Shown one piece after another: positions 8,201 to 21,342 of a DNA stretch of 59,953 nucleotides. The position numbers and the translations under genes were made by a program. Every line of letters starts with the position of its first letter. Positions within the stretch are counted from its first letter, which is position 1. The notes under the pieces were generated by a model. The model ran no database searches and was not told where the DNA came from. It saw only the letters and a list, made by a program, of their open reading frames with translations. The DNA is taken from sequence record DRR723986_5249. One strand, written 5' to 3'.

Positions 8201-10033
8201 CTACAGAGCAGGATCTTCAAACAGCCAGATCACATTGTTCTCGTGGTTGCCAGTGTCTTCGCCAATCAACACTCGTCCATCGTCCAAGATCACCAGATTG
8301 TCGGGGTTGGAGATGTTATTTGTGTTACAGCGGTTTGCTGCACGATCGCCGTAGTAGGGGCCGCCGACAAGCGCTGGGGTGAGGGTGTTGATGTCCACCA
8401 GGCCATCCTTTTCAACGAGCTTCATGCGGTAGACCACACCACACTTGCCGTGAGTGCCGTCTAGCTGAATGTCTCCAGCGTCGTCAGCCATAGTGGCGTC
8501 GAACGAAGACATGGCGAGGTACATGTAGGCTTGGGCACCATCTGCAGCGCCGTTATTCCACCATGTGTCGGCCAGGCCGAAGTTGATGTTGATGCCTTCC
8601 ATTTTGCGGAACTCAGCCGTTGCGCCCATTGCTGCAGCGAGTTTGCGGCTTTCAAGGAAGGCGACACGCTCGTCGGCAAAGGGGTTGGCAGCAACGCTAC
8701 CGCTGTTGTCGAGGTCTTGCCCTGACTTGAATTCTGCGAAGGCCTGAATTTGCGCATCGCTAATGTGCTTGGCGTCGGCAAACGTGCCGTCGAAGCTCGC
8801 AATGGCGTTTTCGATATCGGCCTCATTGCCAGCACCGATCTCAATCCACTCTACAGCAAAGGCAGCTTCCGCTGGGTCAGTGATGCCATTGGACTGGGTG
8901 ACTTTTGCGGCGTAGAGCTTGCCCGCGCTCATATCGTTAGCGGCGTTGGCCACAAACTTAAACAGCACTGTGCCGGTGCCATCGTCGCTGAGGAAGACGG
9001 TGCGGCGGTCTGGCATAACCACGGGGTTTTCGTGTGAGAAGCGCCCCATCAGCTCAAGTTTGTTCACTTCAACATCGGCAACATTGGCTGTTGCTGCAGT
9101 GTTGTTAGTGCCGATCTCGACAATGTAACCGTAGTCGTAAGGGTTGCCCCAGTTACCGCTGCGATCAAGCGGGTAGCCTTTGTATTCAGCAATCGCTTCG
9201 GCATTGGAGAAATAATTGGCATTGGCATTGAACCAGTCGGCTGTATTGTCAAAGTACAGTTCTTCTGCCGACAGTGGCGTGCCCCAGGGGCTTACGGTGC
9301 CAAAACAGTTAACCCAGGTGCCGTCGACACTGGAGAAGTCCAGCATACCTTCCTGGGTCGGGCTGTAGGTATCCGTTAAGCGAATACGGCTCATGCTGCC
9401 TGGGCGGTCTTCCCAGTTGGTATACAGGTAGTAGCCGGTGCCACCATCGGAGACGGCGCCGTTAAAGTCGGGGTCGTTAGAGCTTTTGATTAAACTGCCG
9501 TTAGCGCTGAGGATGTCACCCATTTTGTTGCCATCGGCGAGGTTGTCACCCTGCTGTGCCAACACAATGTAGCTGCCAGCGGCGCTTTGTACGGTTTCTT
9601 TTTGTGCCGTGGTGATGGGGAAGTCCAGAGCGGCGATATCGCCCATGTTGTTAACGTCGGCGTTAAAGTAGCCAACGGTACCTACGTTAAAGACCTTGCC
9701 AGCCGAATCGGTGGTTGTATTAGAGCTGCTTGGGTGCTGAATATTGGAGAACAGCTTGCCGTCTTCGTTAACGAATATCCCGGTAAACTCAGCGCCGAGC
9801 GGAGCGGTAGCAAACCGTTTGAGGCCTTTAGGTGTCACCGTAGAGACGCCATCAGCACCATCTTGACCGTCTGCGCCATTTGCACCATTGCTTCCATCTA
9901 CGCCCGCAGGACCTTGTGGGCCTACCGCGCCGTCTTGGCCATCGCTACCATTTCGTCCGTCATCGCCGCCGCAGGCTGACAATGTTGCAGCCAGAATAGC
10001 GGCAATGGAAGCGCTCAATAACTTCTTGTTCAT
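8201..10033 (-). CDS. phoX: PhoX-family (DUF839) Fe/Ca alkaline phosphatase; lipoprotein with a collagen-like linker
   Basis: PhoX motifs GAEFTG, NIQHP, NCFG..SPWGT.LS.EE, GRFSHEN, KMEG, NPDNL, GED. Lipobox LSA-C followed by a Gly-X-Y run. Confidence 0.88.
   Translation of the reverse strand: MNKKLLSASIAAILAATLSACGGDDGRNGSDGQDGAVGPQGPAGVDGSNGANGADGQDGADGVSTVTPKGLKRFATAPLGAEFTGIFVNEDGKLFSNIQHPSSSNTTTDSAGKVFNVGTVGYFNADVNNMGDIAALDFPITTAQKETVQSAAGSYIVLAQQGDNLADGNKMGDILSANGSLIKSSNDPDFNGAVSDGGTGYYLYTNWEDRPGSMSRIRLTDTYSPTQEGMLDFSSVDGTWVNCFGTVSPWGTPLSAEELYFDNTADWFNANANYFSNAEAIAEYKGYPLDRSGNWGNPYDYGYIVEIGTNNTAATANVADVEVNKLELMGRFSHENPVVMPDRRTVFLSDDGTGTVLFKFVANAANDMSAGKLYAAKVTQSNGITDPAEAAFAVEWIEIGAGNEADIENAIASFDGTFADAKHISDAQIQAFAEFKSGQDLDNSGSVAANPFADERVAFLESRKLAAAMGATAEFRKMEGININFGLADTWWNNGAADGAQAYMYLAMSSFDATMADDAGDIQLDGTHGKCGVVYRMKLVEKDGLVDINTLTPALVGGPYYGDRAANRCNTNNISNPDNLVILDDGRVLIGEDTGNHENNVIWLFEDPAL
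9845..9967 (-). repeat. Collagen-like (Gly-X-Y)n coding repeat in the PhoX N-terminus
   Basis: GDD GRN GSD GQD GAV GPQ GPA GVD GSN GAN GAD GQD GAD G: about 13 consecutive triplets after the lipidated Cys. Bounds approximate. Confidence 0.85.
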
Positions 10034-10081
10034 AACAGTTCCCTAGAAAGAGGTGGATTGGTCTAGTTATAACGGGGGGCC

Positions 10082-10148
10082 AGTCTAGGGACGGACTATG
10101 ACGGTTTAACAAAGAAAACATGTCGAAGTGTTGACGAATTTGTGACAA
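10082..10148 (-). promoter_or_regulatory. PhoB-dependent promoter: 11-bp-phased Pho-box half-sites plus -10 element
   Basis: - strand reads TTGTCAC aaat TCGTCAA cact TCGACAT gttt tctttgt taaa CCGTCAT, then 10 nt, then TAGACT. This is the canonical Pho-box to -10 spacing, upstream of phoX. Confidence 0.8.
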
Positions 10149-10165
10149 CCACCAGGCTGGCTGAG

Positions 10166-10291
10166 TGCGACATATTTGTGCGTTAGAACATTTTACGCTT
10201 CATTGGAGGGCGGTAGTGGCGGCAGATTCGATCGCCGCGGCCGGCGAGTAGCGTGAATTGGCGGTGGAAGTAGTGTTGGCATGGATTCTGT
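10166..10291 (+). promoter_or_regulatory. Putative NtrC enhancer pair and sigma54 promoter for the guanidine operon
   Basis: TGCGACAtatTTGTGCG (10166-10182) and CGCTTCAttgGAGGGCG (10196-10212) are GC-N11-GC NtrC-like sites 30 bp apart. TGGCAT-N5-CTGT at 10277-10291 has a good -24 and an imperfect -12. Confidence 0.45.
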
Positions 10292-10354
10292 ATAGAACAC
10301 GGTGTCCGCACTCTTGGTATCGCAGGACATGCTGTCAAAGCATCACAATTTGGT

Positions 10355-10480
10355 AATGGAGAGCTAGGGTTCCGGTTGTGCACCTTGCACAACGTCTGGT
10401 CCGAGAGCTTTCGACCTCTTCCCCCATCGATTGGATTCGCCACGGGATAGGTTACACGGCGGGACAAAAGCCCGGGAGAC
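10355..10480 (+). ncRNA. Guanidine-I riboswitch (ykkC-yxkD)
   Basis: GCTAGGGTTCCGG...CTGGTCCGAGAGC...GGTTACACGGCGGGACAAAAGCCCGGGAG are the hallmark conserved segments. Sits in the leader of a guanidine carboxylase operon. Confidence 0.95.
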
Positions 10481-10540
10481 GATCGGCAGCCAGTTGCCAG
10501 GAGTGCTCTATTTACCGCGTAACGATGCCGGAGGCAGGCA

Positions 10541-11581
10541 ATGAAACGAATAGCCGCATTACTACTTACTCTCTCATGTTCCTCTTTTAGTCTCGCTTCA
10601 GACAGCTTCAAAGTATGTTGGTCAATTTATGTTGGCTGGATGCCGTGGGGCTATGGTGACGAGCAAAAAATCGTCGATAAATGGGCGAAGAAATACGGCA
10701 TTGAGATTGATGTCGTTCAGATCAACGACTACATCGAGTCAATAAACCAATACACCACCGGCGAGTTTGACGCCTGCACCATGACGAACATGGATGCGCT
10801 GACAATTCCCGCTGCCGGCGGTGTGGACAGTACCGCGCTAATTGTCGGCGATTTTTCTAATGGCAATGACGGGCTGGTACTTAAAAACACCGACTCACTT
10901 CAGGCTGTGAAGGGACAGCAAGTGAATTTAGTTGAGTTGAGTGTTTCCCACTATTTGCTGGCGCGAGCACTGGATAGCGTCGGCATGAGCGAATCTGACG
11001 TTACCGTTGTGAATACCTCCGACGCCGATATGGTCGCTATCTACCCAACAGCGGGGGTAAGTTCTGTGGTGACCTGGAACCCATTACTCAGTGAAATTCT
11101 CACCATGCCCGGCGCAAACAAGGTGTTCGACTCCTCTCAAATACCCGGCGAAATTATCGACCTGCTCGTGGTGAACACCGAGGTATTAAAGAAAAACCCT
11201 GCCCTGGGTAAGGCGTTAGTTGGCGCCTGGTATGAAATCATGGCGATCATGAGCGCCCCAGGAAAGGCGGGCCTCGCTGGTCGCACGGCGATGGCAATTG
11301 CGTCGGGGACGGACACCGCCGGCTACGAAGCGCAGCTGGCCAGTACGAAAATGTTTTACACGCCCAGCGACGCGGTCGCTTTCACCCGCAGCAGTGACCT
11401 GAAGTCAACCATGCAGAGTGTGGCTGAATTCTCGTTTAACCACGGTTTGCTGGGTGACGGCGCTCCCGACGCCGGTTTCATCGGTATCGAAACGCCTGTC
11501 GGTGTCTATGGAAATCCGGCAAACATCAAACTGCGTTTTAACCCCAGCTATATGCAAATGGCGGCTGACGGCAAATTGTAA
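10541..11581 (+). CDS. ABC transporter substrate-binding protein, urea-carboxylase-associated family (probable guanidine binding)
   Basis: Signal peptide. WSIYVGWMPW, DYIESINQY, TNMDAL, GDFSNGNDG, ELSVSHYLL, IPGEIID. First gene after the guanidine-I riboswitch. Confidence 0.9.
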   Translation: MKRIAALLLTLSCSSFSLASDSFKVCWSIYVGWMPWGYGDEQKIVDKWAKKYGIEIDVVQINDYIESINQYTTGEFDACTMTNMDALTIPAAGGVDSTALIVGDFSNGNDGLVLKNTDSLQAVKGQQVNLVELSVSHYLLARALDSVGMSESDVTVVNTSDADMVAIYPTAGVSSVVTWNPLLSEILTMPGANKVFDSSQIPGEIIDLLVVNTEVLKKNPALGKALVGAWYEIMAIMSAPGKAGLAGRTAMAIASGTDTAGYEAQLASTKMFYTPSDAVAFTRSSDLKSTMQSVAEFSFNHGLLGDGAPDAGFIGIETPVGVYGNPANIKLRFNPSYMQMAADGKL

Positions 11582-11591
11582 ACCGTGCCCG

Positions 11592-11611
11592 AGGGTGGCG
11601 CCTGCCACCCT
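11592..11611 (+). other. Intercistronic hairpin after the SBP gene (mRNA stabiliser or weak terminator)
   Basis: AGGGTGGC-gcct-GCCACCCT perfect 8-bp stem between the SBP and permease genes. Confidence 0.55.
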
Positions 11612-11639
11612 AACCATTTTTCTCAGCTGGGATGCTTCT

Positions 11640-12455
11640 ATGAAACGATTGATTAATCAGCAGCCGACGCGGGTATGGGGCATTGCCTTGTCATTACTGC
11701 CCTTTGTATTCCTGCTGGTGCTTTACGTCACGGCCTCTGATGCACGCTTGGCGGAAAACCCCCAAGACAAGCTTTTACCCAGTTTCTCTCAGATGGGCGA
11801 AGCGATGCAGCGCTTAGCGTTTGAGCCGAGTAAGCGCACGGGGCAGTACCTGTTTTGGCAGGACACTCTCAGCAGTTTGCAGCGCCTGGGTTTGGGTATG
11901 GCAATTGCCGCTTGCTTGGGGATGTTGCTCGGTTTGAGTACCGGCGCCTTTCCTGTGGCCTATTCCGGTGTTGCGCCACTGCTGACGGTGGCATCACTGA
12001 TACCGCCAATGGCGATTTTGCCGATACTGTTTATTGTCTTTGGTTTGGGGGAGGTGTCTAAGGTCGCGCTTATTGCTATTGGCGTAACGCCCTTCGTCGC
12101 GCGCGATATCCAAAAGCGCTGTCTGGAAATTCCCCGGGAACAGCTGGTAAAAGCGCAAACACTGGGTGCCAATAGTGGGCAAATAGTCTTGCGGGTGCTG
12201 ATCCCCCAATTGATGCCTCGGCTAATTGATTCCTTGCGACTGTCGTTGGGGAGCGCGTGGTTGTTCCTTATCGCCGCAGAAGCAATCGCTTCTACCGATG
12301 GCCTCGGGTATCGGGTGTTTCTTGTTCGTCGTTACCTGTCGATGGATGTGATTCTGCCCTATGTTGCCTGGATCGCGTTGCTGGCATTTGTTATCGACTT
12401 TGCGCTGCGCAAGCTGAGTTTGTGGGCCTTTCCCTGGCAGGAGAATCGCTCATGA
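11640..12455 (+). CDS. ABC transporter permease (NitT/TauT family)
   Basis: ATG 11640 (MKRLINQQ). Multiple TM segments, EAA-like loop KAQTLGA, WLFLIAAEAIASTDGLGY. Confidence 0.9.
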   Translation: MKRLINQQPTRVWGIALSLLPFVFLLVLYVTASDARLAENPQDKLLPSFSQMGEAMQRLAFEPSKRTGQYLFWQDTLSSLQRLGLGMAIAACLGMLLGLSTGAFPVAYSGVAPLLTVASLIPPMAILPILFIVFGLGEVSKVALIAIGVTPFVARDIQKRCLEIPREQLVKAQTLGANSGQIVLRVLIPQLMPRLIDSLRLSLGSAWLFLIAAEAIASTDGLGYRVFLVRRYLSMDVILPYVAWIALLAFVIDFALRKLSLWAFPWQENRS

Positions 12456-13228
12456 TCGAGATTCGCAATGTATGGAAGCGCTACGGCGACAACGTCATTC
12501 TGGAAAATATTTCTGCCACGGTTGCTGAAGGGGAATTTATCACTTTGGTCGGGACCTCGGGCTGTGGCAAGAGTACCTTCCTGCGCATGTTGTTGGGCAC
12601 TGATGTGCCCAACCAGGGTGAGATTCTGCTGGACGGCAAAACCATTGCTGATGAGCCCGATGCGGAGCGCGGAGTGGTCTTTCAGCAGTACTCGGTGTTT
12701 CCCCATATGACCGTGTTGGAGAACGTCATTATCGCCCGTGCGTTTGAGAAGACCCGCCTGGGCTTTCTCTGGGGCAAGCGTAAGCGCGCTGCCCGCGAGG
12801 AAGCGATGGCAATGCTGGAAACGGTGGGGCTGTCACATATGGCGGCACGTTACCCGGATGAACTCTCCGGCGGTATGCGCCAGCGACTGGCGATTGCTCA
12901 GGCGTTGATTCTAAAACCTCGGATCTTATTGCTGGATGAGCCTTTCGGAGCGCTCGATCCCGGCATTCGTGCCGACATGCACGCGCTTGTGCTGTCGCTG
13001 TGGCGCCAGCACAAGCTCACCGTGTTCATGGTGACCCACGATCTGGCCGAGGGTTTTCATCTGGGAACCCGTCTGTGGGTGTTCGACAAGTTACGTCTCG
13101 ACCCGCAAGCGCCCAATCGTTTCGGTGCAGGTATTACCTACGACCTACCCGTTGGGCAGTGCGAGCCTGAATTACTGCAAGAAATTGACAGTGGCCTGAG
13201 CAGCTCAGGCCAGGAGTTAGTCTCATGA
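12452..13228 (+). CDS. ABC transporter ATP-binding protein (NitT/TauT family)
   Basis: ATGA overlap at 12452. Walker A GTSGCGKS, signature LSGGMRQR, Walker B LLLDEPF, H-loop VTHD. Confidence 0.93.
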   Translation: MIEIRNVWKRYGDNVILENISATVAEGEFITLVGTSGCGKSTFLRMLLGTDVPNQGEILLDGKTIADEPDAERGVVFQQYSVFPHMTVLENVIIARAFEKTRLGFLWGKRKRAAREEAMAMLETVGLSHMAARYPDELSGGMRQRLAIAQALILKPRILLLDEPFGALDPGIRADMHALVLSLWRQHKLTVFMVTHDLAEGFHLGTRLWVFDKLRLDPQAPNRFGAGITYDLPVGQCEPELLQEIDSGLSSSGQELVS

Positions 13229-13935
13229 ATCATTATGAAACCACTATCGCGCCAGGCGGCCACTGGTCGCTGGAGCTGCGTCGCGGCACCTTGCTGCGGC
13301 TGCAGGATATCGACGGCAATGGTAATGCCGGGCTGTTGTTTTATAACCCGCGCAACCTGCTCGAGCGCTACAACGCGCCGGACACGCTCAAGTGTCAGCA
13401 CACCTTCAAACTGACTCGTGGCAACTGTCTGTACTCGGATATGGGGCGCATTTTTGCCTCGATCGTTGACGATGATCTGGGCTGGCACGACACCGTGTGT
13501 GGCAATAGCCACGCCAGCCATATTGATGCGCGCTGGGGCCGTCGCGATTACCAACACGACCGCAACGACTGGCATCAGAATGGTCACGACGCCTTTCTGG
13601 TTGAGCTGGCGAAATACGGTCTTGGCGCCGCGGACATGGCCGCCAACATCAATGTCTTCAGTAAGGTGGAAACTGACGACGAGGGCAATCTGCACTTGGC
13701 CACCGACCACAGTGCGCCGGGCAGCACCTTGACTCTGCGCATCGAGATGGATTGCCTGGTGTTGATTCACGCCTGTCCTCACCCGCTGAACACTGCTGCC
13801 GACTACCCGCGCTGCCGCATTGGTGTGGAATTGAGCGTGGCCGAGCCGATGACTGAGGACGATATCTGCCTTAATCACTGCGACGAAAACCGTCGCGGCT
13901 TTGCCAACAACGCACTGTATTACCTGGGCGCCTGA
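13225..13935 (+). CDS. cgdA: Carboxyguanidine deiminase subunit A (DUF1989, urea carboxylase-associated protein)
   Basis: [41 protein letters not shown]. First of the paired DUF1989 genes before the carboxylase. Confidence 0.87.
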
Positions 13936-13945
13936 GGAGAGAAAC

Positions 13946-14587
13946 ATGATTAAACACAGTGAACGCCTCGCCGCTACCGCGCTGCGCCGCGAGCAGATCG
14001 ACGCCGGGGATTACTACATTGCGAAACTGGGCGCCGGCGAAGTACTGCGCATCCTCGATTTAGAGGGGAATCAGGCGGCGGATACGCTGTTCTTCTGCGC
14101 CGATGATCCCGCGGAGCGCTACAGCGCCACCGACACCATTCGCGAACAGGGCAATGTCTATCTGAGCGCCGGTTCGGTGCTACGCAGTACACTGAATCGC
14201 CCGATGCTGGAAATGGTGGCCGATACCTGTGGTCGTCACGACACCCTGGGTGGTGCCTGCGCCACCGAAAGCAATACCGTGCGTTACGACCTGGAAAAGC
14301 GCTGTATGCACGCCTGTCGCGACAGTTGGATGCTCGCTATTACCGAGCACCCCGAGTACGGGCTGTCCAAGCGCGATATCGGCCACAACATCAACTTTTT
14401 TATGAACGTACCGGTCACGGCCAATGGCGAACTGAGCTTTGCCGACGGCATTTCCGGCGCGGGGAAATATGTGGAACTGAAAGCGCTGGTCGACACCATT
14501 GTGCTCATTTCCAATTGCCCGCAGCTCAACAACCCCTGCAATGCCTACAACCCGACCCCGGTCGAGTGCCTGATCTGGGCGGCCTGA
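13946..14587 (+). CDS. cgdB: Carboxyguanidine deiminase subunit B (DUF1989)
   Basis: GAGGAG RBS and ATG 13946. [52 protein letters not shown]. Confidence 0.88.
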
Positions 14588-14602
14588 TTAACAAGCGATC
14601 CA

Positions 14603-14651
14603 ACGACTTCAGTGGACGGCCACTGTCGTAGACACAAGCGGGACGGCCCGC
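14603..14651 (+). ncRNA. Guanidine-II riboswitch (mini-ykkC), internal to the operon
   Basis: Two GC hairpins each capped by an ACGG (ACGR) tetraloop: CAGTGG-ACGG-CCACTG (14610-14625) and GCGGG-ACGG-CCCGC (14638-14651). 12-nt linker; ends 11 nt before the carboxylase ATG. Confidence 0.88.
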
Positions 14652-14662
14652 AACGGACCAGC

Positions 14663-17600
14663 ATGTTCAAGAAAGTATTGATTGCCAACCGCGGTGCCAT
14701 CGCCACCCGCATTATTCGCAGCTTGCGCGAAATGGGCATCACTTCCGTGGCGGTCTACGCCGACGTCGATGCCCGTAGTCTGCATGTGCGTCAGGCCGAT
14801 GAAGCCTACAGCCTCGGCGAGGGCGGTGCAGCCGACACCTATCTCAACAGCGACAAAGTCTTGGAAATTGCCCGCGCCTGTGGCGCCGAGGCCATCCACC
14901 CCGGCTACGGTTTCCTCAGCGAAAACGCGGCTTTCGTCACTGCCTGCGAGGCGGCGGGGATCGTCTTTATCGGCCCCACTGCGGAGCAGATGCAAAGCTT
15001 TGGCTTGAAACACCGCGCGCGGGAGATTGCTGCGGCCGCGGGCGTGCCCCTGCCGCCGGGCTCGGGCTTGCTGGCGGATGTGGATACCGCCTGTGCCGAG
15101 GCCGCGAATATTGGCTACCCGGTCATGCTCAAAAGCACCGCCGGGGGAGGCGGTATCGGCATGCAGGTTTGCGATTCAGAGGCGGTGCTGCGCGAGGCCT
15201 TTAACAAGGTCAAGCAACTGGGTAAGAACAACTTTGCCGACGACGGCGTGTTTCTGGAGAAGTACATTGCCCGCGCCCGGCATATTGAAGTGCAAGCCTT
15301 TGGCGACGGGAAGGGCGGTGTGCTGGCCATCGGCGAGCGCGATTGCAGCGCCCAGCGCCGCAACCAAAAAGTGATTGAAGAGTGCCCGGCGCCGAATTTG
15401 CCCGAGCCAGTGCGTCAGCGGCTTTACACGCTGGCCGAGGCGCTGCTGTCCAGTGTGAACTACCGCAATGCCGCGACGGTGGAGTACATTTTTGATGCCG
15501 ATACCGAGGAGTGCTACTTCCTTGAAGTGAACACCCGCTTACAAGTAGAGCACGGCGTCACCGAGATGGTCTGGTCGGTGGACCTGGTGCAGTGGATGTT
15601 GCAGCAGGCGGCGGGGGAACTGCCGCCACTGGATGCGCTGCGTCAGGGGCTGTCTGCCAGCGGGCACGCGATTCAGTTGCGAGTGTATGCCGAAGATCCC
15701 TACCGGGATTTTCAGCCCTGTGCGGGGTTGCTCAGTCATGTGGCATTTCCCCAGCCGGGTGAAGCGCTGCCGGGCCTGCGGATTGAACACTGGCTGGAAA
15801 GCGGCATTGAGGTGTCACCGTACTTCGATCCGATGCTGGCAAAAATCCTTTACCGAGGGGAGGACCGCGACGCCGCGATTCAGGGTTTGCGGGAGACGCT
15901 GGATCAGACGCAGTTGTACGGCATTGAAAGCAACGGTGCCTATCTGCGTTACTTGCTGGATGACGCCGTGGTGGCGAAGGGCGACGTCACAACCCGCTAT
16001 CTTGCACAGGTAACTTGGCAACCTGCGCGTATCGATGTGCTGCAGGGCGGTACCCAGACCACCATTCAGGATTTCCCTGGTCGCAGCGGTTACTGGGATG
16101 TGGGCGTGCCGCCCTCGGGGCCTTTCGACAATTATTCCTTCCGCCTCGCCAATGCGATGCTAGGCAACACGCCTGACGCGGCGGCACTGGAAGTCACCCT
16201 GCAGGGGCCGACCCTGCAATTCAGTGCACCGACCCGCATTGTGGTGGCGGGGGCGGCTATTCCACTAAGTCTGGATGGCGAGCCCGTGGCGATGCACACG
16301 CCGGTGGAGGTGGCCGCTGGGCAGACTCTGATCATGGGGCGTATCGAGCGCGGCGCGCGGGCGTATCTGGCCGTTGCAGGTGGCCTCGATTGCCCCGAGT
16401 ACCTCGGCTCGCGCTCCACCTTTACCCTCGGCCAGTTCGGCGGTCATAACGGTCGCGCGCTGCGCACCGGTGATGTGTTGGCGCTGGCGCAGAGCGCATC
16501 CACTGGGCCGGCGCTGAGCCCGGATCAGGCCGCCCTGCCGGACATCGGCTCGCAGTGGTCGCTGCGGGTGATTTATGGCCCCCACGGCGCGCCAGACTTT
16601 TTTACCGACGACGATATCCAGCAGTTCTTCAGCACCGACTGGGAAGTGCATTACAACTCCAGCCGCACCGGCGTGCGCCTGATCGGCCCCAAACCGCAGT
16701 GGGCACGCCAGAGTGGCGGCGAAGCGGGCATGCATCCGTCCAATATTCATGACAACGCCTACGCCTTTGGCACGGTGGATTTCACCGGCGATATGCCGGT
16801 GATTCTCGGCCCGGACGGCCCTTCACTAGGCGGCTTTGTCTGTCCCGCCACGGTGATTACCGCCGACCTGTGGAAACTCGGCCAGTTGCGCGCCGGGGAC
16901 ACGTTGCGCTTTGTGCCGGTAAGCGTTGACGCGGCGGTGGCGGCTGAGCGCTGCCAGAAGGCCTTTTTCGCCGGTGATGAGTTTGGCGATAACACCGCCG
17001 CTGCCGAATCCGCGGCGCCGGTCTCTGTCGAGGCTCTGCCGTCGCCCATCGTTCAACGTCTCAGTGCGGACGAGGTAGGCGATGAGGTGGTTTATCGCCT
17101 GGCGGGCGATCACTTCCTGCTGGTGGAATACGGCCCGCTGGAGCTGGATATTCGCCTGCGCTTTCGCGCCCATGCTTTGATGCAGGATTTGCAGCAGACA
17201 CCATTGCCGGGGCTGCGTGAACTCACGCCGGGCATTCGCTCACTACAACTGCATTATGACGCGCAGCAATTACCGCTGCGTGAGCTGCTGGACGAGCTGG
17301 CGCGCCGCGAACGGCGTTTATCGCAGCGCTTGGATTCCCTGCACGTGCCATCGCGCACGGTGTGGCTACCGCTGAGCTGGGACGACGAGGCCTGCCAGTT
17401 GGCAGTGGATAAATACCAGCAGTCAGTGCGTGCCAATGCGCCCTGGTGCCCGAGTAATCTGGAATTTATCCGCCGCATCAACGGCCTCGACAGCATTGCC
17501 GAGGTGAAAAAGATTGTCTTCGACGCCGCCTATCTGGTGATGGGCCTGGGCGACGTGTATCTGGGGGCGCCGGTCGCCACGCCAGTCGATCCGCGTCACC

Positions 17601-18301
17601 GCTTGGTGACCACTAAATACAATCCGGCGCGTACCTGGACCGCAGAAAACTCGGTGGGTATCGGCGGCTCTTATCTTTGCGTGTACGGCATGGAAGGGCC
17701 GGGCGGTTACCAGTTTGTCGGTCGCACCCTGCAAATGTGGAATCGCTACCGCCGCACGGCCGCGTTTACCGAGCCCTATCTGCTGCGCTTTTTTGATCAG
17801 ATTCGCTTCTACGAAGTCAGCCACGTTGAACTCACGCAAATCCGTCGTGATTTCCCGCTGGGCGACTACCCGCTGCGCACCGAGGAGGGCGAGTTTTCGC
17901 TGGCGGAGTACGAGGCGTTTACTACCCAGCACGCGGCGGAAATCGATACCCACACCGCTCGTCGTGAACAGGCCTTCGATGACGAGTTGGCCCGCTGGCA
18001 TGCCGATGGCCAGTTCCACTACGAGGCACCGGAGGTTGAGGTCAGCGACGATACGCTGGTGATTGGCGACGACGACATTGTGGTGGACAGCTCGGTGGCG
18101 GGCAGCGTTTGGCAGCTTAATGTGGCCGAGGGCGACACCGTTGAAGCCGGGCAGTGCGTGATGCTGCTGGAGTCGATGAAGATGGAAGTGGCCGTGCTGG
18201 CCAGCCAGCCGGGCCGGGTGAAAACGGTGGTGGTGAAAGCCGGTGGCCGCGTCAGTGCCGGTCAGCCGCTGTTAATTCTGCACGGGGAGGACGCGCAATG
18301 A
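14663..18301 (+). CDS. uca: Guanidine/urea carboxylase (biotin carboxylase - carboxyltransferase - BCCP); guanidine-type active site
   Basis: MFKKVLIANRGAIA, HPGYGFLSEN, GGGGIGM, EVNTRLQVEH; CT motifs HPSNIHDNAY, KYNPART, GPGGYQ; biotin site ESMKM. Start ATG 14663. Confidence 0.95.
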   Translation: MFKKVLIANRGAIATRIIRSLREMGITSVAVYADVDARSLHVRQADEAYSLGEGGAADTYLNSDKVLEIARACGAEAIHPGYGFLSENAAFVTACEAAGIVFIGPTAEQMQSFGLKHRAREIAAAAGVPLPPGSGLLADVDTACAEAANIGYPVMLKSTAGGGGIGMQVCDSEAVLREAFNKVKQLGKNNFADDGVFLEKYIARARHIEVQAFGDGKGGVLAIGERDCSAQRRNQKVIEECPAPNLPEPVRQRLYTLAEALLSSVNYRNAATVEYIFDADTEECYFLEVNTRLQVEHGVTEMVWSVDLVQWMLQQAAGELPPLDALRQGLSASGHAIQLRVYAEDPYRDFQPCAGLLSHVAFPQPGEALPGLRIEHWLESGIEVSPYFDPMLAKILYRGEDRDAAIQGLRETLDQTQLYGIESNGAYLRYLLDDAVVAKGDVTTRYLAQVTWQPARIDVLQGGTQTTIQDFPGRSGYWDVGVPPSGPFDNYSFRLANAMLGNTPDAAALEVTLQGPTLQFSAPTRIVVAGAAIPLSLDGEPVAMHTPVEVAAGQTLIMGRIERGARAYLAVAGGLDCPEYLGSRSTFTLGQFGGHNGRALRTGDVLALAQSASTGPALSPDQAALPDIGSQWSLRVIYGPHGAPDFFTDDDIQQFFSTDWEVHYNSSRTGVRLIGPKPQWARQSGGEAGMHPSNIHDNAYAFGTVDFTGDMPVILGPDGPSLGGFVCPATVITADLWKLGQLRAGDTLRFVPVSVDAAVAAERCQKAFFAGDEFGDNTAAAESAAPVSVEALPSPIVQRLSADEVGDEVVYRLAGDHFLLVEYGPLELDIRLRFRAHALMQDLQQTPLPGLRELTPGIRSLQLHYDAQQLPLRELLDELARRERRLSQRLDSLHVPSRTVWLPLSWDDEACQLAVDKYQQSVRANAPWCPSNLEFIRRINGLDSIAEVKKIVFDAAYLVMGLGDVYLGAPVATPVDPRHRLVTTKYNPARTWTAENSVGIGGSYLCVYGMEGPGGYQFVGRTLQMWNRYRRTAAFTEPYLLRFFDQIRFYEVSHVELTQIRRDFPLGDYPLRTEEGEFSLAEYEAFTTQHAAEIDTHTARREQAFDDELARWHADGQFHYEAPEVEVSDDTLVIGDDDIVVDSSVAGSVWQLNVAEGDTVEAGQCVMLLESMKMEVAVLASQPGRVKTVVVKAGGRVSAGQPLLILHGEDAQ

Positions 18302-20109
18302 CATTGCCCACACTGAGTCGCCGCAGCCTGCATCAGGCTTACCGCGATGGCAGCCTGACACCGCGCAAGCTGATGGCCGAGATTGCCGCGCGCTGCGACG
18401 CGCTCAACGGCCACAATATCTGGATTTACCGCCTCAGCGCCGCGGAGCTGGAGCCGTATCTGCAAACACTGGACGGGCACAGTCCCGACAGCCTGCCGCT
18501 GTTTGGTCTGCCCTTTGCCATTAAAGACAATATCGATCTGGCGGGGGTGCCGACCACGGCGGCCTGCGACGCCTTCAGCTATACCCCCTCGCAATCGGCG
18601 ACGGTGGTGCAAGCACTGATTGCCGCCGGGGCGATTCCGGTGGGCAAGAGTAACCTCGACCAGTTTGCCACCGGTCTGGTGGGTACCCGCTCGCCCTGGG
18701 GCGCCTGCAAAAACAGTGTCGACCCCGACATGATCAGTGGCGGTTCCAGCTCTGGCTCGGCGGTGGCCGTGGCCAAGGGGCTGGCCTGTTTCAGCCTGGG
18801 CACCGACACGGCGGGCTCGGGCCGCGTACCCGCCTGCTTTAATAATCTGGTGGGCCTCAAACCCAGTATCGGCCTGTTGTCGGCCACGGGGATGGTGCCC
18901 GCCTGCCGCTCTTTGGACTGCATGACAGTGTTTGCACTGAATGTGGATGACGCCCACGCGGTGCTGTCGGTGGCTGAGGGTGAGGACGCCAGTGATGCCT
19001 ACAGCCGCGCCAACCCCTTCGGCAACTGTTCCCGCCATTACGGACGACACGCCGGCAAATTGCGCCTGGGCGTGATGCCAGCGGAACAACTCGCCTTTTT
19101 CGGTCACGCGGGCTACGAGCAGGCCTATCAGCAGAGCCTTGCGGCGCTTGCCGAGGATGATGAGATCGAGCTGATCGAGGTGGATATGTCAGCCTTTCTC
19201 GATGCCGCCAAACTCCTCTATGAAGGCCCCTGGGTGGCGGAGCGCTACCTTGCCTGCTCACCGCTGATTGAGGAGCAGCCCGACGCGCTGCTGCCGGTCA
19301 CCCGAACGATTATCAGCGGCGGTGCAGCGCCGTCAGCGCGGGATGCCTTCTCTTTTCAGTATCGTTTAAAAGCCTTGCGCAAACTGGCGCAGGCCACGCT
19401 GGATTCGGTGGATGCCCTGCTCACACCCACCGCGCCGCGGCCCTATACGATTGCCGAGCTGGACGCTGATCCCATCGCCCTGAACAGCAATACCGGCTAC
19501 TACACCAACTATATGAACCTGTTTGACCTCTGCGGTTTGGCGCTGCCTACGGCGTTTACCGACGACGGTTTCCCCTTTGGCCTGACGCTGGTTGCCGAGG
19601 CCTTTGGCGACCGCAAGCTGCTGTCGATTGGCAACCGTCTGCAACAGTATTTTGCCCTGCCGCTGGGCGCGGAAAAGCGTGCTTTTGAAGCGCTTTCCGA
19701 GAATGCTTCGACAGCGGCCGAGCGGGTGGACGTGGTGGTTTGCGGCGCCCATCTGGACGGTCAGCCCCTTAACTGGCAGCTTCGCGAGCGTGGAGCCACC
19801 TTACAGCTTTGCACGCAGTCAGCCCCTGATTACCAGCTCTATGCCTTGCCCGGTGGGCCGCCGTTGCGTCCGGCCATGGTGCTGGCTGAGTCCGGCCAGG
19901 GGCAGGCGATCGAGGTGGAAGTATGGTCGATGCCGCTCGCCGAACTTGGCAGTTTTGTGGCCGGGATCCCGGCGCCACTGGGCATCGGCAAAGTGCGGCT
20001 GGCCGACGGACGGCTGTGCCCGGGCTTTATCTGCGAGCAGTCGGGGATTCGCGGCGCGACGGATATCAGCCATTTTGGCGGCTGGCGGGCCTACCTCTGC
20101 AGCTTATAA
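18298..20109 (+). CDS. atzF: Allophanate hydrolase
   Basis: ATGA overlap with uca. Amidase signature IKDNID, GGSSSGS, GTDTAGSGRVPA. C-terminal domain VVCGAHL.GQPLN..PLGIG. Confidence 0.94.
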   Translation: MTLPTLSRRSLHQAYRDGSLTPRKLMAEIAARCDALNGHNIWIYRLSAAELEPYLQTLDGHSPDSLPLFGLPFAIKDNIDLAGVPTTAACDAFSYTPSQSATVVQALIAAGAIPVGKSNLDQFATGLVGTRSPWGACKNSVDPDMISGGSSSGSAVAVAKGLACFSLGTDTAGSGRVPACFNNLVGLKPSIGLLSATGMVPACRSLDCMTVFALNVDDAHAVLSVAEGEDASDAYSRANPFGNCSRHYGRHAGKLRLGVMPAEQLAFFGHAGYEQAYQQSLAALAEDDEIELIEVDMSAFLDAAKLLYEGPWVAERYLACSPLIEEQPDALLPVTRTIISGGAAPSARDAFSFQYRLKALRKLAQATLDSVDALLTPTAPRPYTIAELDADPIALNSNTGYYTNYMNLFDLCGLALPTAFTDDGFPFGLTLVAEAFGDRKLLSIGNRLQQYFALPLGAEKRAFEALSENASTAAERVDVVVCGAHLDGQPLNWQLRERGATLQLCTQSAPDYQLYALPGGPPLRPAMVLAESGQGQAIEVEVWSMPLAELGSFVAGIPAPLGIGKVRLADGRLCPGFICEQSGIRGATDISHFGGWRAYLCSL

Positions 20110-20146
20110 CATGTCAGCATGGTGGTTTTACTGTGATCGCTGAACC

Positions 20147-20395
20147 ATGTTGGAAAGCTGGAAAGATTATTGCCCTTACTGCGGCGAGCGTATCGAACTG
20201 CTGATCGACCCGAGCCTGGCAGGGGAGCCGTACGTTGAAGACTGCGAGGTTTGCTGTCGCCCCATGCGCGTCAGCGTGAGCGATGGCGACGCGCCACTGG
20301 GCGCTGATAGCTGGGCGCAAGCGATAGAGGAGCTGCCCGCGTCAGCGTCCGACTCCGGTTTGCAGGTTCAGCTTCAACGCGAAGATGAGGTGTAA
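20147..20395 (+). CDS. CPXCG motif cysteine-rich small protein
   Basis: CPYCGE...[11 protein letters not shown]. Confidence 0.8.
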
Positions 20396-20397
20396 CG

Positions 20398-20910
20398 ATG
20401 CCCTGTGAACTGCGAGCGATAGAAGCAGATATCTGCCAGCTGAAGGTTGATGCCATCGTTAATGCCGCCAATAACAGCTTGCTCGGCGGGGGCGGTGTCG
20501 ACGGCGCCATTCACCGGGCGGCGGGGCCGGCGTTGTTGGAATTCTGTCGCGGCTTGCAGGGTTGCGCGACCGGCGATGCCAAGGTTAGCCCCGGTTTTGC
20601 ACTGCCTGCTCAATACGTTCTTCATACAGTAGGGCCGGTGTGGCACGGCGGTGATCAGGGCGAGGCCGATAAACTGGCGAGTTGCTACCGCCGCTGTATT
20701 GAAGAGGCCAAGGCACTGGAGCTCGCTACTCTGGCCTTTCCGGCCATTAGCTGCGGCGTATATGGCTACCCTCACGACCAGGCTTGCGCTATTGCGGTGG
20801 CCAGTTTACGGGAGGCCTTGCTTGAGCCGCGCAGCCTCCGGCAGATCTTTCTGGTGGCGTTCAGCCCGGAAATGCTGGCCCACTGGCAGCGGGCTTTAGC
20901 GCACGGCTAG
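20398..20910 (+). CDS. Macrodomain protein, O-acetyl-ADP-ribose deacetylase (YmdB-like)
   Basis: DAIVNAANNSLLGGGGVDGAIHRAAG, HTVGPVW, AFPAISCGVYGYP. Confidence 0.93.
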   Translation: MPCELRAIEADICQLKVDAIVNAANNSLLGGGGVDGAIHRAAGPALLEFCRGLQGCATGDAKVSPGFALPAQYVLHTVGPVWHGGDQGEADKLASCYRRCIEEAKALELATLAFPAISCGVYGYPHDQACAIAVASLREALLEPRSLRQIFLVAFSPEMLAHWQRALAHG

Positions 20911-20913
20911 GTT

Positions 20914-21342
20914 TTACTGGCGGCCTAAAGCCTTGAGCAAACTGGCTTCCGTTTGTGGCCCCGTGAGTACACTGTGCAGTTCACCTTGTGGGTTGAGAAT
21001 ATAGGTGGTCGGTAATACTTTGGGGCGCTCTTGCCCGAGCAATTGGGCGGGGTCGGCGAGCATACTTTCAAATTGAATATCCAATTCGGCAATGGCCTCG
21101 TCTAGCGCCGGGCCCTGCAGGCGGTCGTAGTTTGCGCCGTAAACGTCGATGTCGCTGTGTTCGGCATCAAGTTTATTGAGTTCGGGAATTTCATCGCGAC
21201 AGGGGCCGCACCATGTCGCCCAATAATTAATCAGTACCCAGTTGCCGGTATCTGGCAAGCCCGCTGCGCTGGTTTCGCTGCGGCTGCAGGCGATTAATAG
21301 AGAGCAGGTAAGCAGTAGCAAGATTGATCGCAGTTGTATCAT
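20914..21342 (-). CDS. TlpA-family disulfide reductase lipoprotein
   Basis: Lipobox LIA-C, INYWATWCGPCRDEIP, LPTTY. Confidence 0.9.
   Translation of the reverse strand: MIQLRSILLLLTCSLLIACSRSETSAAGLPDTGNWVLINYWATWCGPCRDEIPELNKLDAEHSDIDVYGANYDRLQGPALDEAIAELDIQFESMLADPAQLLGQERPKVLPTTYILNPQGELHSVLTGPQTEASLLKALGRQ

Follow-up and report, generated by a model that had tools for sequence, protein, structure and literature searches.

Guanidine-I and guanidine-II riboswitches in a probable guanidine-assimilation operon of sequence record DRR723986_5249

The operon and its two RNA elements

The DNA analyzed here is a stretch of 59,953 nucleotides (nt) from the sequence record DRR723986_5249, and the whole stretch is referred to as the window. 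Tightly packed genes were found on its plus strand in the order substrate-binding protein (SBP), permease, ATPase, cgdA, cgdB, gca, and atzF (NCBIfam and Pfam models), with a guanidine-I riboswitch in the leader and a guanidine-II riboswitch between cgdB and gca. The locus is, with high confidence, an operon for guanidine assimilation by the guanidine carboxylase pathway (ATP-binding cassette [ABC] importer, CgdAB, Gca, and AtzF), carrying the two guanidine riboswitches usual in such operons. For these families, the names CgdAB and Gca were adopted from published work (PMC12186494, PMC12508155).

The guanidine-I aptamer that had been proposed for the leader was recovered with the Rfam model of ykkC subtype 1 (RF00442) at 10353..10480 (+), with a score of 86.6 bits (gathering score 63; E 4e-14) over the full model (1–107 of 107). 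It was the single match in the Rfam scan of the whole window at curated thresholds. The aptamer lies 60 nt upstream of the TIGR03427 SBP gene, which heads the cgdAB-gca-atzF array. Folding of 10462–10543 with RNAfold gave a hairpin at 10475..10509 (+), a candidate expression platform, the 5' arm of which (GGAGAC) consists of the last 6 nt of the aptamer. The hairpin is followed by the tail AUUUACC, with no U-tract.

The guanidine-II element is situated 4.1 kb downstream, five genes away from guanidine-I. Between the cgdB stop codon (TGA, 14585–14587) and the gca start codon (ATG, 14663) there is a gap of 75 nt (14588–14662), which contains on the plus strand hairpin P1 (14610..14625; CAGTGG-ACGG-CCACTG, 6 bp, ACGG loop at 14616–14619), a 12-nt linker (14626..14637), the first bases of which (UCGUA) are kept within the genus, and hairpin P2 (14638..14651; GCGGG-ACGG-CCCGC, 5 bp, ACGG loop at 14643–14646). 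From the end of P2 to the gca ATG there are 11 nt, and in between stands a weak Shine-Dalgarno (SD) sequence, GGA (14655..14657, +), 5 nt upstream of the ATG; in the alignment of 21 relatives, its GG hardly varies. The two ACGG-looped hairpins, their distance from the ATG, and the weak SD had been described in the initial annotation, and all of its coordinates were right.

The guanidine-II family is defined by 16 conserved nucleotides, i.e., two ACGR hairpins, each closed by two G-C pairs, with a linker of 7–40 nt (Reiss & Strobel 2017, PMC5558903). All 16 family-defining nucleotides are present here in two GG-ACGG-CC cores, each loop being closed by two G-C pairs, and the 12-nt linker falls inside the family range. 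The window has a single occurrence of the pattern GGACGRCC-N(10-40)-GGACGRCC, which was found in 0/100 dinucleotide-preserving shuffles. RF01068 was not reported at the gathering threshold in the whole-window Rfam scan; a permissive scan of 14540–14700 (161 nt) gave a match at 14610–14650 (E 3.3e-4).

In the mechanical list of open reading frames (ORFs), a frame of 1229 amino acids (aa) starts at GTG 14612 and runs over the element. The carboxylase models align from ATG 14663 (TIGR02712 residues 2–1206; PF00289 from residue 1), this ATG is invariant in 21/21 aligned relatives, and the length of the spacer shifts by non-multiples of three. The family models, the invariant ATG, and the out-of-frame spacer place the start at 14663, and the suspicion that the call at 14612 is over-extended was justified.

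The importer is encoded on the plus strand, as are the enzymes, by the SBP gene (10541..11581; guanidine importer SBP, TIGR03427, 560.9 bits, cut-off 333.9), the permease gene (11641..12455; PF00528), which starts with ATG and the stop of which overlaps the ATPase start as ATGA, and the ATPase gene (12452..13228; PF00005), which has an ATGA overlap at each end. Further downstream are cgdA (13225..13935; DUF1989, UAAP1; TIGR03425, 311 bits; PF09347), encoding a carboxyguanidine deiminase subunit, and cgdB (13946..14587; DUF1989, UAAP2; TIGR03424, 315 bits). The cgdB start was set to ATG 13946 by tblastn, in which the relatives aligned only from residue 16 of the long ORF onward, and by the sequence. 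The guanidine ('urea') carboxylase gene gca (14663..18301; 1212 aa) matched TIGR02712 with 1787.5 bits (residues 2–1206 on model positions 1–1200), and the allophanate hydrolase gene atzF (18298..20109; TIGR02713, 770.6 bits) starts within the gca stop. ATGA overlaps were found at three junctions (permease/ATPase, ATPase/cgdA, and gca/atzF), and the gap between cgdA and cgdB is 10 nt. There are only two long gaps: 59 nt after the SBP gene and the 75 nt with guanidine-II before gca. Coupling of atzF to the carboxylase gene had also been claimed, and the ATGA overlap at 18298–18301 bears it out.

Contigs from RNA libraries (one study) span cgdB into gca: X1 (14141–16771), X4 (14183–14850), and X5 (14057–14902). 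As these are contigs and DNA carry-over is possible, they lend weak support to co-transcription across the cgdB/gca junction. The region of about 11200–12560, which had no cover, was left uninterpreted, and the start of contig X2 at 14607 was not taken as a 5' end.

In the first long gap, directly 3' of the SBP gene, there is a terminator-like hairpin with a T-run (11592..11611, +). Its stem has 8 pairs, including 6 GC pairs, and its tail is AACCATTTTT. This strong hairpin with its T-run, between the SBP and permease genes (11592–11620), may act as an internal attenuator or stabilizer setting the ratio of the SBP to the membrane parts. Directly 3' of atzF, on the same strand, a small cysteine-rich ORF (20147–20395) is followed by an O-acetyl-ADP-ribose deacetylase/macro-domain gene (20398–20910; NF001664, 214 bits). 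The divergent neighbor (8201–10033, −) encodes an alkaline phosphatase of the PhoX type that carries a collagen-like repeat at its N terminus (PF05787 and PF01391), an unusual combination.

Conservation and distribution of the guanidine-II element

The region 14300–14900 was used as a query against 41 related genomes, 31 of which had a match; at 15 loci the whole query was matched with 70–98% identity. By motif search, the doubled core was found in 21/30 fetched loci. Most of the nine loci without it matched just the biotin-carboxylase part of the query and not this junction; at L021 and L023 cgdB was present and the motif search did not find the doubled core. In the aligned relatives (21/21) the cores were invariant, apart from R = A/G. 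Within the genus, CUUCAGUGGACGRCCACUGUCGUA and CGGGACGRCCCG were fixed, and the DNA just upstream of P1 was unalignable. RF01068 matched at the homologous place in 16/20 loci scanned (E ≤ 1) with 24.9–33.2 bits, only L016 being above the cut-off, and in the nearest genome compared (G001) the homologous site was the sole RF01068 match at E ≤ 0.1. At L004, a locus assigned to the same genus, 3,621 nt are 100% identical to locus L032 of Spongiibacter thalassae, and the window is therefore most likely from a Spongiibacter.

The spacing upstream of the element varies among the closest relatives. In one of the same genus (L019:1800-2900), about 1.1 kb of non-coding, internally repeated DNA was found between cgdB and guanidine-II. 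The ORFs on both strands of this insert share repeated peptides, and the riboswitch remains next to gca. A comparable split was seen at L018 and L020.

Covariation was assessed in 22-nt segments anchored on the tetraloops and aligned without gaps, to avoid fitting the alignment to the structure. The two loop-adjacent pairs of each hairpin are fixed by the sequence selection, and only the outer pairs were counted as evidence. For P1 (alignment A3; 64 rows, 57 distinct; L005, L016, and L020 enter as gapped rows only), 79.4% of cells were paired vs 54.0% in column shuffles and 29–53% with a slid partner. The covariation score was 0.596 vs 0.161, a value matched by 0/500 shuffles, and the pairs three and four from the loop had zero unpaired cells with 29 and 31 double changes, respectively. 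For P2 (alignment A4; 61 rows, 57 distinct), pairing was 79.9% of cells vs 67.3% in shuffles and 29–47% in slid controls, and the covariation score was 0.348 vs 0.136 (matched by 0/500 shuffles). An earlier MAFFT alignment (A1), in which the outer P2 pair and L030 were misaligned and RNAalifold reported 2 covarying pairs only, was replaced by A3 and A4.

The layout was surveyed with an alignment of 11 CgdB sequences (A2), searched against one genome per species. At least 600 stretches matched and at least 568 were confirmed as relatives, of which the best 80 (67–81% identity) were kept with 6 kb of flank. This sample is biased to relatives of the CgdB of the window: mostly Gammaproteobacteria, some Alphaproteobacteria, and one member of Geopsychrobacteraceae. 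The 80 genomes were scanned with RF01068 (E ≤ 0.1) and RF00442 (E ≤ 0.01), and the matches were mapped by contig coordinates and counted by script. A class-level RF01068 survey with one genome per family (22/151 with a match at E ≤ 0.1, 5 above the cut-off) had been replaced by this CgdB-anchored one, as too few of the genomes carry the operon. A motif screen with exact GGACGRCC missed GAGACGACUC, GCAGACGACUGU, or ACGU variants (L058, L065, L077, and L102), and the counts use the Rfam model.

Guanidine-I before the ABC genes together with guanidine-II in the cgdB-gca gap, the layout of the window, was found in 42 loci, i.e., in 42/68 evaluable loci when the 12 cut loci were left out. In 11 more, guanidine-II was in the gap and there was no guanidine-I in the locus; nine of these are cut upstream, and two (L058 and L070) are complete. 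In one locus (L065), guanidine-II was in the gap and guanidine-I immediately preceded cgdA. Guanidine-I without an Rfam guanidine-II match was directly before cgdA in 8 loci and before the ABC genes in 6; among the latter, L044, L077, and L091 have two ACGN hairpins by motif, and L059 and L089 end before the junction. Neither class was found in 5 loci. The initial annotation had implied that the layout was novel, which does not hold: the arrangement has been published and is that of the majority in the survey. Two switches placed in this way are the usual design of such operons and have been in print since 2017.

In a second layout, guanidine-I again precedes the ABC genes, and guanidine-II is placed immediately upstream of cgdA (6 loci: L078, L085, L094, L104, L108, and, with only 22 bits, L050). 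L091 also belongs here, as does L099, the one locus with guanidine-II before cgdA and the upstream part cut. The second layout was seen mostly in Alphaproteobacteria (Hyphomicrobium, Methyloceanibacter, and Rhodobiaceae) and in the one Geopsychrobacteraceae member, with a cgdB-gca gap of 8–48 nt.

Among the gap elements found by Rfam (n = 54), 32 reach 32 bits and 22 are below, though both cores are kept. The short-stem CUUCAGUGG...CCACUGUCG variant of the window's lineage scores 22–32 bits. The P1 variant of the window, with its CUUC and UCG flanks, recurs among the low scorers in loci of Spongiibacter, Microbulbifer, Oleiphilaceae, Halopseudomonas, Marinospirillum, and Cellvibrio.

Both guanidine classes were observed in one 5' leader in Azospirillum (L074:4986-5300 and L100:4972-5290; also L112–L117 and L119). 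There, the guanidine-I aptamer (77–88 bits) is followed by 72–78 nt, two GGGACGRCCC hairpins, GGAAGGAGG, and the cgdA start, with no intervening gene. In a sample of 41 Azospirillum genomes, guanidine-I was found in 9, and 7/9 had the leader with both classes; Rfam detected the hairpins in 3/7, with only about 25 bits. L118 has a decayed copy, with a loop changed to ACCA and no second hairpin, and L111 has none. This leader may be an unreported 'bi-mechanism' tandem, since a 2022 survey of tandem riboswitches reports that none of the guanidine classes was seen in tandem (Sherlock et al. 2022, PMC9481103).

Proposed control and alternative explanations

With both RNAs identified and found to be conserved, and with the genes and their junctions mapped, a scheme of control can be proposed, in which the binding of the ligand, an ON response, and the division of control between transcription and translation would follow the two families and the probed ortholog from Vreelandella boliviensis. 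Guanidine-I would decide whether RNA polymerase, or the mRNA, passes the leader: the last six bases of the aptamer are common to the downstream hairpin, which would make ligand binding and hairpin formation mutually exclusive. Such a hairpin agrees with the usual ON-switch logic. With two guanidinium ions bound, the guanidine-II loops would kiss and gca would be translated from the weak GGA site, and atzF would be translated by coupling to gca through the ATGA overlap.

Several observations weigh against this scheme. The RF01068 score of 28.0 bits is below the curated gathering score of 32, which is an operational cut-off and not a structural feature; the Rfam check with both models, which had been suggested, accordingly placed RF00442 above its cut-off and RF01068 at the expected site but under the threshold. 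By alignment, the low score is due to short stems and not to core changes. A terminator scan found no terminator-like site at 10480–10541, and the guanidine-I platform has no canonical U-tract; therefore, 'transcriptional' control is assumed here and not seen. A hairpin without a U-tract after guanidine-I is common to many marine gammaproteobacterial loci, and U-rich tails were seen in the enterobacterial loci L055, L079, and L083. No SD-sequestering structure was predicted: P1 and P2 form unaided in the minimum free energy and centroid folds, and the SD is unpaired in the centroid (z only −1.84). When RNAduplex energies were compared for 54 non-identical orthologous elements with 200 shuffles each, the SD region had no excess complementarity to the 5' flank and 5' arm of P1 (mean z +0.09) or to the 3' arm of P1 and the linker (+0.04). 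'SD unmasking' is here taken from the literature, because folding leaves the SD free and the anti-SD test was null. Ligand binding and the expression response in this organism are likewise expected by analogy with the two families and the V. boliviensis ortholog. Pairing of the conserved UCGU after P1 with an SD-overlapping ACGG was also considered and dropped, as the ACGG is not kept in same-genus relatives.

The layered control suggested in the initial annotation stands in part. Both elements are real, and control of transcription by class I and of carboxylase translation by class II is the published reading (PMC5558903, PMC12508155); the terminator expected after guanidine-I was not found at 10480–10541. 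In that annotation, uptake and CgdAB would switch on first and the carboxylase would pass a second gate with a different threshold; the values that bear on this are the in vitro dissociation constants of the V. boliviensis orthologs. Tentatively, and with less than even confidence, the two switches may form a non-redundant filter of specificity and threshold. Class I, responding to guanidine only, would license the whole message through a platform that, in this marine lineage, has no canonical terminator tail. Class II, which is cooperative and the probed ortholog of which does not distinguish guanidine from methylguanidine, would impose a second threshold, a steeper one, on the carboxylase, which consumes ATP and biotin, and on AtzF (via the ATGA overlap, possibly with Rho polarity). 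The route would be other than simple SD unmasking, because no anti-SD partner was detectable in the 54 orthologs.

It is rather unlikely, though the best of the alternatives, that the array consists of two transcription units, with a separate gca-atzF mRNA transcribed from a promoter located either within the 3' end of cgdB or between cgdB and gca, and with guanidine-II serving as its ordinary 5' leader; this could coexist with read-through. It would suit the cgdB-gca gaps of up to 350 nt in other species, the same-genus relative with about 1.1 kb of repeat-like DNA between cgdB and a guanidine-II that stays beside gca, and L058 and L070, where guanidine-II is present and guanidine-I was found nowhere in the genome searched. 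However, the RNA-library contigs bridge the cgdB/gca junction, the terminator scan found no terminator-like site after cgdB, and the orthologous array was treated as one operon, the whole protein set being induced (Sinn et al. 2025, PMC12508155). On the plus strand, a promoter scan of 10000–21000 likewise gave no sigma-70-like site, which counts little, as it missed the promoter of the operon itself.

A decayed, non-sensing relic, in which a stable hairpin pair serves only as an intercistronic mRNA stabilizer or processing site, is highly improbable. The RF01068 score under the Rfam cut-off, the failure to find an anti-SD partner in the folds or in the 54 orthologs, and the existence of a decayed copy in one Azospirillum leader (L118) are in its favor. 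Yet the 16 nucleotides that contact the ligand or close the loops are all intact in this element and, apart from R = A/G, in 21/21 aligned relatives; short stems rather than core changes account for the low score; and 22/54 orthologous gap elements are also below 32 bits with both cores kept. That a chance GC-rich hairpin pair lies inside an N-terminal carboxylase extension can practically be dismissed: the open frame from GTG 14612 exists, but the carboxylase models align from ATG 14663, the spacer lengths among relatives differ by non-multiples of three, the motif was found in 0/100 shuffles, and the stems covary.

Comparison with known systems

The value of these results is in annotation rather than discovery. 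The Rfam gathering score misses 22/54 gap elements, including the one of this genus, and under the longest-ORF rule the element is taken for part of the carboxylase, as an N-terminal extension that is false.

The guanidine-II element of Pseudomonas aeruginosa resembles the one described here in its pair of ACGR hairpins and its position directly before the carboxylase start codon (PMC5558903). In the model for that RNA, the SD is base-paired to the 5' end of P1 and to the linker (PMC5558903), whereas no such complementarity was found here or in the 54 orthologs.

In Raoultella terrigena, in Erwinia rhapontici, and in Klebsiella michiganensis, the importer and carboxyguanidine deiminase genes are behind guanidine-I, and the carboxylase and allophanate hydrolase genes immediately downstream are behind guanidine-II (J Bacteriol 2025, PMC12186494), similarly to the window. 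Enterobacterial loci (L055 Dickeya, L079 Pantoea, and L083 Atlantibacter) differ in having a U-rich terminator tail after guanidine-I, which the window lacks.

The pair of elements is also comparable to the SAM-II/SAM-V 'bi-mechanism' tandem, where two unrelated folds with one ligand act on the transcription and translation of one message (PMC9481103, Table 1). Those two adjoin in one leader, whereas the elements here are 4.1 kb and five genes apart; therefore, guanidine-II would control the distal genes only.

The closest likeness in print is to Vreelandella (Halomonas) boliviensis LC1, which has class I in the 5' untranslated region, followed by the ABC importer, cgdA, cgdB, class II, gca, and atzF (PMC12508155). 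Two Halomonas loci related to V. boliviensis (L102 and L106) were in the window-like class of the survey. Both V. boliviensis RNAs bind guanidine by in-line probing (Sinn et al., Nat Commun 2025, PMC12508155): in vitro, guanidine-I bound guanidine only, with a dissociation constant (KD) of 44 µM, and the KDs of guanidine-II were 93 µM for guanidine and 83 µM for methylguanidine (Sinn et al. 2025, PMC12508155). The element of the window differs in having shorter stems and an Rfam score below the cut-off. In V. boliviensis, mgdH and mgdL stand between gca and atzF (PMC12508155), whereas here these two genes meet in the ATGA overlap, with no methylguanidine demethylase module. What the cell gains from detecting one ligand with two RNAs that differ in fold, specificity, and level of control is a question that was also raised for V. 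boliviensis (PMC12508155), and this operon, having no methylguanidine module, would be a clean place to address it.

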